A stretch of 64,000 bases of DNA from Eledone cirrhosa (lineage: Eukaryota). The stretch is taken from NCBI GenBank assembly GCA_964016885.1, contig OZ024745.1:80414001-80478000 (forward strand), given 5' to 3'. A program made the translations under genes and the position numbers. Each line of letters begins with the position of its first letter. Position 1 is the first letter of the stretch. This document shows, one piece after another, positions 8,309 to 63,623 of this stretch. The notes beneath the pieces were generated by a model. It was not told the origin of the DNA. It saw only the letters and a list, made by a program, of their open reading frames with translations, and made no database searches.

Positions 8309-8725
8309 ATATTGTTATATTTGAGGAGAGTCATATTGTTATAATATTGCCAGAAAAAATAATAAAACACACTCACTGTTTGGTTTGGGTTGGTTTTTGC
8401 TTCTGTATATTTTATATCCCTATAGACAATACAACGGGAGGAAACATAACAGTACCACTGATGATGTCACAGATGTGTGATGAAAGAACTTTGATAGAAT
8501 ATATTTATATCTGTATTTTTAACTGTTGGTCAATCAATGATAAACATTGATTGCCAGCTAAATTAACTATAGGTATATAAAATATATGGAAGCGAAAACC
8601 AACCCAACCCAAACCAAACAGTGAATGTGTCTTACTATTTCTGGTAATATTATAACAATATGACCCTTCCTATATATAACAATATTTGTTTCAACACACA
8701 ATTTCATATCAAAAACCTTGCAAAA
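8309..8725. mobile_element. Fold-back hammerhead element, family A
   Basis: Inverted arms ~8309-8425 / ~8568-8685, homologous to 50503-51003; hammerhead motif in the spacer. Confidence 0.75.
8453..8496 (+). ncRNA. Minimal type I hammerhead ribozyme motif, degenerate
   Basis: TACCA-CTGATGA-T-GTCACA gatg TGTGAT-GAAA-GAAC-TT-TGATA. Confidence 0.65.
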
Positions 8726-8905
8726 TAAATATATATATAAATTCCCCAAAATGGCTAAATGAACACACTTTTTTTTTTCTTTAAAAAATGTTTTCCTGTT
8801 TCTTCCTCTTCTCATATTAAACTAATATATATCTTCATTGTAAGATATCGTTCACTGTGTTGTTTTCTGTTTACTTTTCCTCATACACACACACATTATA
8901 TATAT

Positions 8906-9097
8906 GGGCGGTGGATTGGCAGTATCGGTAGAGGGTCGGACGCCATGCTTTGCAGCAAAGAGTTACGGCCCTTTATGGTCTGAGTTCAAATCCCGCCGAG
9001 GTTAACTTTGCTTTTCATCCTTACGGGGTCGATAAAATAAAGTACCAGTAATACACTGGGATAATTGCTGGCCTTGTGCCAAAAGTAGAAACAATTA
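8906..9097 (+). mobile_element. SINE family A, full length
   Basis: GGCGGTGGATTGGCAGTATCGGTAGAG head, B-box GAGTTCAAATCC, tail AAAGTAGAAACAATTAT. Confidence 0.93.
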
Positions 9098-9105
9098 TAT
9101 ATATA

Positions 9106-10484
9106 TCTATACTATAAAGCTGACGGCCGTATGTAGGTAACAAATTTTCCACCAAACGGTTGGACCAAACAGCACCAAATTTGCACCATAGATGTAACTT
9201 TTTCCAAGTAAAAATGTGAGGGTATTTTTGTTAAAAGATTAAAGACATTATTTAAATATTCACTTCTTTAAAATTTCAAATGTCAACACTTCCGGTTATA
9301 CGTCATTCCTCATTTTTTCTTATGACGTCGCACAACATTGCCCTCTTTTTCTTAGTCTGTCTTTTTAGATAGATACATAGCTATAACGTAGCGCCCTTTT
9401 AATATGTCTCTGTATGGCTGGCTGCCTGCATTAGATAACATTTTTCGAAATATTTACTTCTGCGTTCACAGACGGATTTTTTTAGTTTCAGAAGATCCCG
9501 TTAAGGGTGAAAGCAGCAATTCTTTGCTTAAACTTTAATCTGTTATTTTAATATATATATTCGTGTACAGATACTTTTGCATACACAAAAACAAAAACCT
9601 ATTTATTTCACGAAAGCACAGACGGCTTATCGTCATTGTTACTGTTTGAGGTTAGAGGACCACAGTCTTTCCAAGATCTGAGAACCATCAATGGCCCACT
9701 TACCGTTTGGCTTGCCAGATGCGTGGTATGTTACACGATGACAGCCATTGGCACCTCACCCTGCAAGAAGCAGCAACTGCTAAAGTCCCTTCTCAGCTGC
9801 GAAAATTTTTTGCTATTATGCTGCACAACTGCGATCTCACCGACCCTCTCGCACTGCGGAAGTCTAGCTGAGGACATCCTCCACCGCACATGCAGACACA
9901 ATCCAAACGTAACATACGATGTCGTTTTCAACGAGGCGCTCATTTGTCTAGAAAACAGTGTCTCCTGGAGATTGGTGGTCGGCCTCTAAGTCACTACAGC
10001 TGACCTGCTCCTGACAAGAGTGTCCAGAGGTCAACGTCTACAGAGCTTCTCCGCAAGACGAGCTATGAAATCAGTGATTCTCCCATGGTCAATTGTAAGT
10101 AGGATGTTCTAGAATGAGCTCGCCAAACAATCTCTTCATCTTTGCTCCGGAGGGCCGAACAAAAGATATTGAATACTCTGAGGTTCTAACAATGTAATTT
10201 AAATATTTTCTGTTACTTTGAATTTCCATTATGGTTGTATAAATTATTGTTTGTTAAAAAATTTGTTCCCTGTTCAGTCTTTATTGTTGTAACTATCAAT
10301 TTTCTTTAATGTATTTGCTTGATGAACAGGGGAATCCTAAAAACTATTCAAACCCAACATCAGAGCACGTTAAACACTCCCACCCCATTGATTTGAGAAG
10401 GCGTGCAGTATCTTTGCACTAGAGTGTAGGGGGGATTCCTGAAAAGATAAAATGCCGGTATACCTAGCCGGACGGACCAGCTAG
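9106..10484 (+). mobile_element. Internally deleted Helitron with Rep/helicase remnants
   Basis: 5' A|TC at 9106; 3' CCGG..CCGG hairpin then CTAG|T at 10481-10484. Remnants LLLFEVRGPQSFQDLRTING, GMLHDDSHWHLTLQEAA..PSQLRKFFAIML, and PIF1 motif FSHGQL*VGCSR...TKDIEYSEVL. Confidence 0.88.
9484..9534 (+). ncRNA. Hammerhead-like motif with variant core CAGAAGA (family E)
   Basis: AGTTT-CAGAAGA-TCCC gttaa GGGT-GAAA-GCA..TGC-TT-AAACT; second copy at 39569-39619. Confidence 0.5.
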
Positions 10485-60031: not shown

Positions 60032-63000
60032 ATATATATATATTATATATATATATATAATTTATATATATATATTATATATATATATATAATTTATATA
60101 TATATATTATATATATATATATAATTTATATATATATATATATATATATATATATATATAATTTATATATATATATATATTATATATATATATATAATTT
60201 ATATATATATATATATTATATATATATATATAATTTATATATATATATATATTATATATATATATATAATTTATATATATATATATATTATATATATATA
60301 TATATAATTTATATATATATATATATTATATATATATATATATAATTTATATATATATATATATTATATATATATATATAATTTATATATATATATATTA
60401 TATATATATATATAATTTATATATATATATATATATATATATATATATATATATATATATATAATTTATATATATATATTATATATATATATTATATATA
60501 TATATATATATAATTTATATATATATATTATATATATATATATAATTTATATATATATATATATATATATATATAATTTATATATATATATTATATATAT
60601 ATATATAATTTATATATATATATTATATATATATATATATAATTTATATATATATATATATATATATAATTTATATATATATATTATATATATATATATT
60701 ATATATTATATATATATATATATATATATATATAATTTATATATATATATATATTATATATATATATATAATTTATATATATATATATTATATATATATA
60801 TAATTTATATATATATATATTATATATATATATTATATATATATATATAATTTATATATATATATTATATATATATATATAATTTATATATATATATATA
60901 TATATATATATAATTTATATATATATATATATATATATATATATAATTTATATATATATATTATATATATATATATAATTTATATATATATATATATATA
61001 TATAATTTATATATATATAATTTATATATATATATATATATATATATATAATTTATATATATATATATATATATATAATTTATATATATATATATATATA
61101 TAATTTATATATATATATATATATATATATATATAAATTATATATATATAAATTATATATATATATATATATATAATTTATATATATAATTTATATATAT
61201 ATATATATATATATATATAATTTATATATATATATATATATATATATATATATTTATATATATATATATATATATATATATATATATATATATATATATA
61301 ATTTATATATATATATATTATATATATATATATATAATTTATATATATATATTATATATATATATATATAATTTATATATATATATTATATATATATATA
61401 TATATAATTTATATATATATATTATATATATATATATAATTTATATATATATATTATATATATATATATATAATTTATATATATATATTATATATATATA
61501 TATATAATTTATATATATATATTATATATATATATATATAATTTATATATATATATTATATATATATATATATAATTTATATATATATATTATATATATA
61601 TATATATAATTTATATATATATATTATATATATATATATATAATTTATATATATATATTATATATATATATATATATAATTTATATATATATTATATATA
61701 TATATATATAATTTATATATATATTATATATATATATATAATTTATATATATAATTCATATATATATAATTGTTTCTACTTTAGGCACAAGGCCAGCAAT
61801 TACCCAGTGCATTACTGGTACTTTATTTTATCGACCCCGTAAGGATGAAAGGCAAAGTCAACCTCGGCGGGATTTGAACTCAGATCGTAAAGGGACGTAA
61901 CTATGCTGGAAAGCATGGCGTCCGACCCTCTACCGATACTGCCAATCCATATAATATATATATAATATATATATATATTATATATATAATTTATATATAT
62001 ATAATATATATATATATATATTATATATATATATTATATATATATATTATATATATATATATATATTATATATATATATTATATATATATATATATATAT
62101 ATATATATTATATATATATTATATATAATATATATATATATATATATATTATATATAAATTATATATATAATATATATATATATATAAATTATATATATA
62201 ATATATTATATATAAATTATATATATAATATATTATATATAAATTATATATATATATATATATAATATATATAAATTATATATATATATATATTATATAT
62301 AATTTATATATAATATATATATATATATATATATATTATATATAATTTATATATAATATATATATATATATATATTATATATATAATTTATATATAATAT
62401 ATATATATATATATTATATATATAATTTATATATAATATATCTATATATATTATATATATATAATTTATATATAATATATATATATATATATATAATTTA
62501 TATATATATATATATATTATATATATATAATTTATATATATTATATATATATATATATATAATTTATATATAATATATATATATATATATTATATATATA
62601 TAATTTATATATATTATATATATATATATATATAATTTATATATAATATATTATATATATAATTTATATATATATATATATTATATATATAATTTATATA
62701 TAATATATATATATATATATTATATATATAATTTATATATAATATATATATATATATATTATATATATATAATTTATATATAATATATATATATATATTA
62801 TATATATATAATTTATATATATTATATATATATATAATTTATATATAATATATATATATATTATATATATATAATTTATATATATTATATATATAATATA
62901 TATATATATAATTTATATATATTATATATATAATATATATATATATAATATATATATATATAATTTATATATATTATATATATAATATATATATATATAA

Positions 63001-63095
63001 TATATATATATTATATATATAATATATATAATATATATATATTATATATATAATATATATATATATAATATATATATAATATATATATATTTATT
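60032..63095. repeat. (TA)n-derived array with TATAATTTATA units
   Basis: Direct reading. Confidence 0.97.
61767..61949 (-). mobile_element. SINE family A
   Basis: Nearly identical to 55531-55704. Confidence 0.92.
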
Positions 63096-63163
63096 TATTT
63101 ATTTATATACACGCTTACACACACACACATATTTATATGTGCGTGGTTTTGTTTACCTATGGT

Positions 63164-63623
63164 AATAAAGCAATGCAGATATCGGATAAGAAGCACTCTA
63201 CAGTTTGTAGGACTGGAGTATACATCATATATAAGAACGAAAGATGGTTAAAAGAGGTCCATGTATTTTATTATGCGCATTTGAAAAACAAATATCATCA
63301 TGCAATAATATGTGTTTTCATCAGATAAAACAGGAAGACATAATATGAAGGTTAAAAAACACTTGTGGATAGTGCAGTTTTAAATCAACATAAATATGTT
63401 GATTTAAAACTGCACTATCCACAAGTGTTTTTTAACCCTCATATCATGTCTTCCTGTTTTATCTGATGAAAACAAATATTATTGCATGATGATATTTGTT
63501 TATGAAATGCGCATAATAAAATACATGGACCTCTTTTAACCATCTTTTGTTCTTATATATTATGTATACTCCAGTCCTACAAACTGTAGAGTGCTTCTTA
63601 TCCGATATCTGCATTGCTTTATT
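63164..63623. mobile_element. Hammerhead family C fold-back, ~228 bp arms
   Basis: Palindrome centred on AAAT (63392-63395); one hammerhead motif per arm. Confidence 0.9.
63455..63523 (+). ncRNA. Type I hammerhead ribozyme motif
   Basis: TGTTTTAT-CTGATGA-AAACAAATATTATT gcat GATGATATTTGTTT-AT-GAAA-TGCGCA-TA-ATAAAATA. Confidence 0.75.

Follow-up and report, generated by a model that had tools for sequence, protein, structure and literature searches.

The window, by which we mean the whole 64,000-nt stretch of Eledone cirrhosa DNA analysed here, holds a piece of an endonuclease-bearing Penelope-like element together with a series of hammerhead-bearing element ends and short non-coding units, which features are as follows:

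8313..8728 (+): family A, hammerhead core 8458 in the 3' end of a Neptune-type element, together with an inverted terminal piece
9447..9550 (+): family H fragment, inside a repeat of about 1.4 kb (9105-10484) with Helitron-like ends
12027..12167 (-): relative of family G, decayed hammerhead 3' half
13037..13097 (+): orphan hammerhead 3' half, with GAAA, a 5-bp stem III and UU
16111..17047 (+): family B, partial tandem plus inverted copy of a non-coding unit of about 423 nt; extended type I, cores 16753(+) and 16284(-)
17075..17530 (right boundary approximate) (+): sister of family C, core 17326 plus inverted fragments
17658..17940 (-): family L copy, a 5'-truncated piece of a non-coding tandem unit of about 530 nt, with (TA)n on both sides
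17718..17818 (-): predicted S-G-C hammerhead of family L, with the upstream strand of helix II at 17792-17788, GAAA at 17756-17753 and CUGAUGA at 17729-17723
29650..29851 (left boundary approximate) (+): family I, core 29754, related to G but older, without GAAAC in this copy
38545..38729 (-): family D, piece of a non-coding unit of about 312 nt, core 38707
39551..39639 (+): family H, from the 3' end of Hydra element 4; folds completely, with a 4-bp stem III and CAGAAGA (U4A) as core
44490..44662 (+): family G, loop II fold-back of a hammerhead 3' half, from Hydra element 3
49824..50051 (+): another copy of family L, of the same fold; UA 49935-49936, GAAA 49953-49956, CUGAUGA 49980-49986
50500..51003 (unstranded): family K, sister of family A, two 3' halves that meet in loop II as a fold-back
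52497..52624 (+): family C, 3' end of a relative of Hydra element 1, type I hammerhead with core 52526 and a palindrome-like stem III
58602..60030 (-): 5'-truncated Hydra-clade element 1, with the C-terminal GIY-YIG frame 60030-59447 and 3' UTR
63164..63649 (+): family E, 3' ends of Hydra element 2 as a head-to-head pair, cores 63324(-) and 63463(+)

The initial annotation had named seven full hammerheads and seven partial ones. At all seven of the former (cores 8458, 16284(-), 16753, 17326, 38707(-), 52526 and 63463) CUGANGA with GAAA downstream is indeed present, and three of the sites—16753, 17326 and 52526—pass a strict type I descriptor. The other four do not: 8458 has a C.A mismatch in stem I common to most family A copies, 16284(-) a weakened stem I, and 63463 a mismatch at the foot of stem II, while 38707(-) has lost in the window copy the cleavage triplet that family D keeps. 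As to the partial sites, those at 9484 and 39569 fold completely, with CAGAAGA (U4A) as core; 12030, 13037, 44530 and 50766 are only 3' halves, those at 44530 and 50766 being folded back on themselves in loop II; and 29754 is decayed. A plus-strand GAAA at 12030 was rejected as part of a ribozyme, the motif there being a 3' half on the minus strand. The list had also missed the motif at 17729(-) and 49980(+), and its families, held to be unrelated in sequence, include several sisters and one shared lineage: 17326 and 52526 both match one element end at 80-92%, 8458 and 50766 represent sister families, and 12030, 29754 and 44530 form a single lineage.

For the strict descriptor the mean over 100 block shuffles of the window was 0.02 hits, and the reversed window gave 0. 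A 500-kb sample contained 45 motifs, against 0 in reversed and 0.4 in shuffled sequence; and evenly spaced genome samples totalling 700 kb contained 66 strict type I hammerheads, a clear excess over the 0 in the same sequence reversed. These 66 hits sort into 21 clusters, which diversity bears out the proposal of a large and varied population of hammerhead-bearing Penelope-type elements ending in (TA)n; the tandem and inverted layouts were likewise confirmed. Extrapolation to the genome yields about 94 strict hammerheads per Mb, or some 2.8e5 (range 1.9-3.9e5), a density far above that of the axolotl, for which 120,000 hammerheads are reported in a genome about 10 times larger, the descriptors used in the two cases being different. 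Since sampling ended at 700 kb, rarer families and any Naiad ORF could escape it. The Rfam models miss the hammerhead folds of these elements: at E up to 10 no hammerhead figured among the 150 listed of 183 matches in the window, and at the gathering score 8 loci gave 0 matches.

The GIY-YIG frame that had been noted beside (TA)n is present (59447-60030, minus strand), but its assignment to the Naiad type has to be abandoned, because in full copies the RT comes first and the GIY-YIG last, whereas Naiads carry the endonuclease first (PMC8557442). The window frame aligns to residues 551-745 of a 745-aa element frame, a single ORF of 720-761 aa being found in 15 of 15 long-ORF copies, with the RT N-terminal and the GIY-YIG C-terminal in the three inspected (L031, L034, L037). 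Searches of Pfam and PDB named no domain in this ORF, so that the RT and the endonuclease were read from motifs; its nearest named relatives are Argonauta proteins at 36-41%. The motifs RWR and DKT occur in L034 and L293, the Hydra clade being characterized by RWK and by DKT in place of DKG; the CxCx5C linker, as well as CxxC and CxH beside the conserved E and N in the absence of CCHH, was seen in L034, L288, L293 and the window frame; and the Cx2-5CxxC linker, which along with CCHH marks the Naiad endonuclease, has no match in L034, where CxCx5C stands instead. An unrelated DKA string lies further down in L034. The window copy adjoins (TA)n at its 5' end and terminates at its 3' end inside an N gap (58402-58601), and 150 of the 150 scored hits to it are 97-100% identical. 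Judged from these motifs rather than from a tree, the window endonuclease belongs, as C-terminal domain, to a young Penelope-like element of the Hydra clade.

A type I hammerhead lies 3' of the ORF in 14 of 15 full copies, about 1.35-1.45 kb past the stop in autonomous ones, and the same hammerhead also precedes the frame by about 165 nt in 9 of the 15, from which arrangement we conclude that the unit is a permuted repeat delimited by hammerheads. The family C end at 52497..52624, placed between (TA)n tracts, is 90-92% identical to the ends of the full copies L034, L036 and L037, and its sister with core 17326 reaches 80-82% to the element 1 ends, with a stem II that differs yet is still paired. 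With the Hydra clade of Craig et al. (2021, PMC8557442), which includes the octopus Hydra-1_Obim, the E. cirrhosa elements have in common the C-terminal GIY-YIG, the RWK-like and DKT motifs, the CxCx5C linker, the CxxC and CxH around E/N without CCHH, a canonical hammerhead and the (TA)n target. They differ in a unit of about 3.7 kb rather than less than 3 kb, in their very high copy number, in the existence of at least four families—none, by eye, with the hammerhead letters listed for Hydra-1_Obim—and in the U4A and U3-A8 cores.

Family A, for its part, shares with the Neptune clade an RT followed by a Cx4CxxC linker, a CCHH-type GIY-YIG and a minimal hammerhead, although the copies inspected are old and broken and the clade was assigned from motifs, not from a tree. 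The Cx2-5CxxC linker was found in L372 and the C-terminal CCHH-type GIY-YIG, by eye, in L356, L357 and L372; of 30 endonuclease loci, 12 carry the A-type core on the endonuclease strand. Other copies of its sister family K possess the full core and a compensated stem II. In family E the core at 63324(-) has a mutated GAAA; an endonuclease lies upstream in sense in 5 of 30 loci, and L288 contains a 637-aa RT-EN frame. Family G is folded back in 16 of 28 loci and retains the 5' core in 3 of 28, the few long copies having a U3-A8 core; which substitution explains why a search for the canonical core before the family G stem II returned a single match, and that one chimeric. Element 4 copies are represented by L292 and L293, and U4A was present in 30 of 30 family H loci, which had been chosen by likeness to the 39569 copy. 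The repeat enclosing the family H fragment at 9447..9550 may be a Helitron, to judge from its TC...CTAG ends and one motif, but searches on it gave no support for that label. The half-hammerhead at 13037 had 0 other copies in the 2.04 Mb of genome examined.

Most of the listed motifs are thus 5'-truncated ends of four Hydra families and one Neptune family. The initial annotation had left open the choice between truncated pseudo-LTRs and non-autonomous elements, and the answer differs from one family to the next: in A, C, E, G and H we have the truncated ends of Neptune or Hydra elements that are autonomous, in B and D non-autonomous units. Reading closure at 30 loci per family with 1.5 kb flanks, we found that the unit closes on itself in 12 loci for family B (longest ATG frame 83 aa) and in 8 for family D (42 aa), compared with 0 for families A and E. 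Families B and D thereby exhibit the short non-coding unit, the type I hammerhead and the tandem arrangement of retrozymes, and resemble the non-LTR retrozymes (Cervera and de la Pena, 2020, PMC7229834; Li et al., 2026, preprint), likewise non-coding tandem units of 300-430 nt; but instead of long arrays they form partial tandems and inverted pairs scattered over (TA)n sites, and their circular RNA is only predicted. Of the Xenopus retrozyme dimers, 1 of 9 cleaved (10.64898/2026.07.22.740005).

A (TA)5+ tract lies within 200 nt downstream of 55 of the 66 strict hits, as against 17% of random sites, and the 3' ends of the individual families abut (TA)n in 24 (B), 26 (D), 27 (E), 29 (G), 27 (H) and 27 (L) of 30 loci, for a null of 7.9%. 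This adjacency is not specific, since it is shared by 16 of 30 loci of a Helitron-like control family, and by just 12 of 30 loci of family A. TA tracts also occur internally in families A, B and F. Most insertions are short 3' ends, frequently in head-to-head pairs.

Family L has the layout of the non-LTR retrozymes but a permuted ribozyme. Its 3422 candidates include 40 that were scored, all 98-100% identical, and the unit closes on itself in 18 of 30 loci—in 17 at 526-537 nt and in one at 588. The blocks stand in the order cleavage site, GAAA, CUGAUGA (non-circular S-G-C). The chain begins with the outer helix P0, a hairpin, the 5' strand of helix II, P2, stem III, UH and stem I, and continues through a link of 3-4 nt to the 3' strand of helix II, GAAA, stem III, P2, stem I, CUGANGA and P0; from which order it follows that the chain exits the core after A9 and that helix II is completed by the upstream strand. 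In the copy at 17718..17818(-) the predicted cut would fall at UA, between 17773 and 17772; the copy at 49980 differs from it in P2 by a compensatory change and adjoins (TA)n at its 3' end. UA, GAAA and CUGAUGA are intact in 28 of 29 young copies scored, and below GAAA the young subfamily has an A-U or G.U pair in place of G-C.

Among 14 diverse members whose helices have turned over, the catalytic-core letters are invariant, 86.7% of cells are paired, and 21 of 35 pairs show double changes (stem I, 4/6; stem II, 2/4; stem III, 2/6; the I-II helix, 5/6), which counts ignore relatedness. That number of double changes was reached in 0 of 500 shuffles, by a statistic that likewise ignores relatedness, and slid controls paired 30-45%; the structure was drawn from the same 14 sequences as were tested, of which L407 is misaligned in the alignment. 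RNAalifold, which cannot form pseudoknots, alone recovers only the hairpin and P2. In the 700 kb the S-G-C descriptor gave 6-7 hits, against 0 in reversed and 0.1-0.2 in shuffled sequence, and the decoy core ATGA.TA gave 2-3 loose hits. The additions of a relaxed-core scan, which were only satellite or AT-rich noise, were dropped before the 14-member alignment, and a loose match at 39696(-), without P2 and helix II and inside a SINE-like repeat, was rejected.

With the type-SGC and type-CSG hammerheads (Eckert et al., 2023, PMC10085705) family L shares the conserved core and, with the former, the S-G-C order, the short link from stem I to stem II and an extra helix joining the far ends of those stems. 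It differs in that helix II takes a strand from upstream of the cleavage site and the chain leaves after A9 into an outer helix: at most one pair is possible after A9 (11 of 14 rows), so that CUGAnGA is not directly continued by a stem II strand, whereas PMC10085705 assumed the two to be uninterrupted. As modelled, the family L ribozyme works like SGC but is a further permutation, and it likely marks an overlooked, putatively self-cutting RNA of animal genomes; non-circular permutations were hitherto on record from metatranscriptomes and metagenomes alone, apart from a single weak case in bacteria.

The published Naiad consensus ends of cnidarians, an arthropod and octopuses show, by eye, the family L fold (9 records of File S5 of PMC8557442), and it is on this ground that we regard family L as probably of Naiad type; those of nematodes have the C-S-G order, also by eye (6 records of the same file). 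Parses were made only for records surfaced by core-word searches, and several arthropod Naiad records with a core yielded none by eye. According to PMC8557442, Naiads have no canonical hammerhead but just strings labelled "core" or "half core". Family L has in common with the Naiads the 3'-end fold and the (TA)n target, but no ORF; in the 2.04 Mb examined (<0.1% of the genome) we found neither a Naiad ORF motif nor a C-S-G hit. We consider it probable that Naiads possess a ribozyme, namely a doubly pseudoknotted, non-circular hammerhead which is C-S-G in nematodes and, in cnidarians, arthropods and cephalopods, opened at A9/10.1 into a four-way junction; and that a non-coding unit of about 530 nt bearing such a ribozyme is now multiplying here, its copies numbering thousands, as a circular RNA that parasitises Penelope-type enzymes.

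That one Naiad-type endonuclease, represented by the frame at 60031, mobilises all the ribozyme elements would accord with the preference of Naiads for (TA)n (PMC8557442) and with the Naiad-type fold of family L. For that frame, however, the proposal is refuted, inasmuch as it ends in a stop, comes after the RT in full copies and has Hydra motifs without CCHH; and as A, C, E, G and H are each tied to a Hydra or Neptune ORF of their own, we consider a common Naiad mobiliser highly improbable, the only Naiad link being family L (17729/49980), which had gone unlisted. Still less credible is that all the small elements are truncated autonomous ends: this holds for A, C, E, G and H, and just 30 loci per family with 1.5 kb flanks were read, but B, D and L rejoin their own downstream sequence at about 423, 312 and 530 nt in 12, 8 and 18 of 30 loci, unlike A and E.

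Two further alternatives concern the catalysis of family L. The fold might be real but no longer, or never, catalytic, being kept as a protein-binding or priming signal for the RT; for hammerhead mutants were without effect on insertion in vitro (PMC11167929), core variants are fixed in successful families (U4A, family H), and most family G copies lack the 5' core. We nonetheless judge this unlikely, as the core letters are invariant in the 14 members despite helix turnover and are kept in the Naiad ends of several phyla, and the U3-A8 swap in family G preserves the 3-8 core pair. Less likely again is that family L needs a dimer, or neighbouring tandem units, in order to cleave, strand-swapped into an ordinary three-way hammerhead with the knotted monomer inactive. 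Minimal Penelope hammerheads as a rule cleave as dimers (PMC4209133), and partial tandems occur in 18 of 30 loci; yet the non-palindromic stem III of 4-6 bp, the fixed spacing of 27-28 nt from GAAA to the core and the link of 3-4 nt from stem I to helix II match the monomeric S-G-C ribozymes that cleaved (PMC10085705).

We therefore hold, with considerable confidence, that the listed motifs are 3' ends of Hydra and Neptune Penelope-like elements along with short non-coding units at (TA)n, likely put there by the elements' own endonuclease and RT, and that family L has a conserved, covarying, non-circular hammerhead core predicted to be self-cutting. The ribozymes would trim tandem or read-through transcripts to unit length, and the products may become circular; an element protein would nick both strands of (TA)n and start reverse transcription inside the RNA, which nicking and internal start would yield two 3' ends, partial tandems and inverted pairs. 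Nicking of both strands and an internal start were observed in vitro for the anole Penelope, and hammerhead cleavage was not required for insertion in vitro (PMC11167929). Family L might be moved in trans either by a Naiad outside the DNA examined or by active Hydra or Neptune proteins.

If the Naiad reading is true, the published denial of hammerheads in Naiads would fall, and so would the view of hammerheads as mere parasites of Penelope elements; the clade would have a hammerhead like that of the other animal endonuclease-bearing Penelope clades. The permutations would also be the first non-circular ones of any ribozyme in animal genomes, beyond anonymous metatranscriptome contigs; they would supply a phylogeny showing the passage from one permutation to another, and would introduce a break in the core, at A9/10.1, for which the six-permutation scheme left no room. 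Cephalopod Naiads have been described as long-dead remnants (PMC8557442), with which description the 98-100% likeness of the family L copies is at odds.

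The CUGAUGA motifs at 17729(-) and 49980(+) are not followed by GAAA, which tetranucleotide lies instead 27 nt ahead of each; and both belong to family L, a short non-coding unit whose best 40 matches among 3422 candidates were 98–100% identical. Of 30 loci, 18 show the unit closing on itself (17 of them at 526–537 nt); its longest ATG frame is at most 44 aa, and the UA, the GAAA, and the CUGAUGA are kept in 28 of the 29 copies scored. A descriptor for this order of the hammerhead blocks (cleavage site, GAAA, core; S-G-C) gave 6–7 matches in 700 kb, against none in the reversed and 0.1–0.2 in the shuffled sequence, with one of five decoy cores giving 2–3 matches.

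To assess the fold we aligned 14 members of family L, selected for diversity and each with a canonical core. In the structure drawn from these same sequences, 86.7% of 487 cells were paired; one genomic copy (L407) is shifted in the alignment, though that copy pairs fully when read directly. Changes on both sides occurred in 21 of 35 pairs, a count that none of 500 shuffles reached (mean 10.1) under a statistic that ignores relatedness, and upon sliding the partners the pairing fell to 30–45%. In addition to stems I and III, the predicted architecture has an outer helix P0, a hairpin, and a helix P2 that connects stem I to stem II at their distal ends; of these, RNAalifold recovered the hairpin and P2 only. 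Helix II takes its partner strand from the sequence 5' of the cleavage site, and no more than one pair is possible immediately 3' of A9. In three unlabelled runs the contig depth was ~10x higher over the ribozyme domain (17680–17850) than over the family-specific upstream sequence (17870–17940), which contrast, depth being no copy number, is a weak hint that many subfamilies may share that domain. A SINE-like repeat at 39690–39800(-), with GAAAC and then CUGAUGA, passes a loose S-G-C descriptor, but is without P2 and helix II and was treated as chance.

Hammerheads of the S-G-C and C-S-G orders cleave, according to the sections of PMC10085705 covered here; family L shares with the former the block order, the short link, and the extra helix, but differs from them in that block C is not intact. 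As for the Penelope-like elements (PLEs), the covered sections of PMC8557442 describe the Naiad clade as being without canonical hammerheads, some records having a marked core or half core. We parsed by eye 15 of the 54 Naiad records in File S5 of that paper, found among the listed matches of core-word searches and with taxa partly inferred from file order. Nine showed the L-type order, every helix differing in its letters, as follows, and six, from nematodes, the C-S-G order with block C intact.

L-type Naiad records, read by eye in the covered part of File S5
Acropora: three near-identical records
Hydrozoan (part 9): one record
Cubozoan (part 12): two records
Arthropod (part 19): one record
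Octopus: two records

Within the same part of the file, several arthropod Naiad records with a core did not fit either fold, and a further search of the records yielded no additional parse; several arthropod ends in parts 16–19 carry a GC-rich stem before CUGANGA that matches neither, possibly a third variant. The L form would correspond to a C-S-G form opened anew at the A9/10.1 junction, as tandem or circular templates would produce. A search of 2.04 Mb of this genome for Naiad motifs gave none, and those sections of PMC8557442 present the Naiads of cephalopods as remnants. In the open literature searched, we met no description of a permuted hammerhead for Naiads, for any retrotransposon, or for an animal genome; in their covered portions, a 2026 octopus repeat annotation (PMC13282606) contains neither "ribozyme" nor "hammerhead," and PMC13725137 (2026) mentions other permutations only by reference. 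Judged from sequence, the covariation-supported permutation of family L appears to be novel and to represent the missing Naiad ribozyme.

The initial annotation, which had proposed at least six ribozyme families at (TA)n plus a Naiad-type endonuclease, otherwise describes mostly known biology, under a wrong clade label. The window, from a 3.0-Gb host genome, has 30% G+C; long tracts of it are rich in (TA)n, and a single N gap lies at 58402–58601. Both core halves are present at all seven sites annotated as full hammerheads, but only three (16753, 17326, 52526) pass a strict type I descriptor, for which 100 block shuffles of the window gave a mean of 0.02 matches and the reversed window none. 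The same descriptor, applied to 70 evenly spaced 10-kb stretches (700 kb), found 66 matches in 31 stretches, against 0 in the reversed sequence; these matches form 21 clusters, and in 29 of them stem III is a perfect palindrome. The genome-wide estimate, from resampling by stretch, is 2.8e5 (1.9–3.9e5); 12 decoy cores had 0–2 matches apiece in 500 kb. Rfam gave no hammerhead among the window matches listed or in the tested loci.

The hammerheads are enriched for flanking (TA)n: in the unbiased 700-kb sample, (TA)5+ lies within 200 nt downstream of 55 of the 66 hammerheads, versus 17% of random sites. Among the best 30 matches per window copy, a choice favouring young, alike-structured copies, the 3' ends adjoin (TA)4+ in 24–29 loci each for families B, D, E, G, H, and L and in 12 for family A, the null being 7.9%. 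A Helitron-like control also ends there (16/30), so that the bias, though strong, is not peculiar to these elements. Different families are stacked in one tract at L037, L199, L230, L253, and L402, indicating that earlier insertions stay targets.

The endonuclease frame at 59447–60030(-) had its best 150 of 69463 candidates all 97–100% identical. Fifteen full copies, chosen for long open frames, each contain one ORF of 720–761 aa; in the three printed, the reverse-transcriptase (RT) motifs are N-terminal and the GIY-YIG is at the end, whereas in Naiads, per the covered sections of PMC8557442, the endonuclease comes first. One copy (L034) carries RWR, DKT, CxCx5C, CxxC ahead of E, and CxH behind N, and Cx2-5CxxC, sought in it, was absent: all features that those sections give for the Hydra clade, along with canonical hammerheads, (TA)n targets, and one octopus family already included. 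The domain order and the motif set thus argue against the Naiad label and for Hydra. Among named proteins, those of Argonauta come closest to the element protein (36–41% identity), suggesting an octopod-like host. A hammerhead lies 1342–1462 nt past the stop in 14 of the 15 copies and 163–178 nt ahead of the frame in 9, with an inverted one upstream in 8; in the window, the 5' truncation of the copy lies at (TA)n, and its 3' end disappears into the N gap.

The link of ribozyme families to PLE ORFs was found for C, E, G, and H (Hydra) and for A and K (Neptune-type). Family C (52526, 17326) is 80–92% alike to the 3' end of the endonuclease-bearing Hydra element. In 5 of 30 loci family E (63463) is preceded by a second Hydra endonuclease in the same sense, with a 637-aa RT-EN frame in L288; family G (44530, 12030), of which family I (29754) is an older relative, lies downstream of a third in 1 of 30, with an inverted copy in another locus; and in 2 of 30 loci a fourth Hydra ORF comes before family H (39574, 9489). 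A Neptune-type RT, followed by a linker and a CCHH endonuclease, lies upstream of family A (8458) and of the sister family K (50766); 12 of the 30 endonuclease loci carry an A-type core on the strand of the endonuclease. The family H copy at 9489 sits within a 1.4-kb repeat (9105–10484) with TC...CTAG ends, by which we take it to be Helitron-like; this repeat captured the ribozyme end and amplified it (30 loci, found by the captured part).

The few long copies of family G have a UUGANAA core, sharing the U3-A8 swap already recorded in schistosome elements (PMC4209133). The family H core has U4A in 30 of 30 loci read, a term absent from the covered sections of PMC3088659, which give U4C as tolerated. 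A further family with a U3-A8 core (UUGAAAA) shows a complete minimal type I fold (L301:3186, L301:2173), and a CUGAUGA directly after (TA)n at 44416 is apparently a decayed copy of a long-stem-III family in L318. Family G copies end in loop II and fold back in 16 of 28 loci; such junctions concentrate in that loop (window 44490–44602, 50527–51003; loci L196–L225), likewise in family K, as if the RT stalled or switched templates there.

In families B (16753) and D (38707), the sequence upstream returns to that downstream of the ribozyme, at ~423 nt in 12 of 30 and at ~312 nt in 8 of 30 loci, respectively, such self-closure occurring in 0 of 30 for A and E; the ATG frames reach at most 83 aa in B and 42 aa in D. 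As short, self-closing, non-coding units with a type I hammerhead, both fit the non-LTR retrozymes described in the covered parts of PMC7229834 and 10.64898/2026.07.22.740005. Relatives of B with different stem II letters occur downstream in L225 and upstream in L384, the former with a palindromic stem III ACAUGU instead of ACUAGU.

The permuted units are bounded by ribozyme motifs and show 5' truncation, partial tandems, and head-to-head pairs, with two alternative 3' ends in families C, D, and H. In the covered portion of PMC11167929, a Penelope protein nicks each of the two DNA strands and extends both, beginning at two internal sites of the RNA, and insertion in vitro does not depend on hammerhead cleavage. 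Read-through transcripts would be reduced to unit length by cleavage, inverted pairs might arise if both nicks in (TA)n serve as priming sites, and B, D, and L would rely on a borrowed enzyme.

The window also contains a mariner/Tc1 transposase frame of 324 aa at 1–973(-), which continues beyond the window edge (Pfam Transposase_1, E 1.5e-16), and a weak IS1595-like transposase fragment at 18477–18878(+) (E 6.5e-5, below the family cut-off). Fragments near 23057 and at 46973–49885 are similar to a 1240-aa open frame in L292:4719-8438(-), which we take to resemble an endonuclease-RT LINE, the window fragments presumably being similar LINEs.
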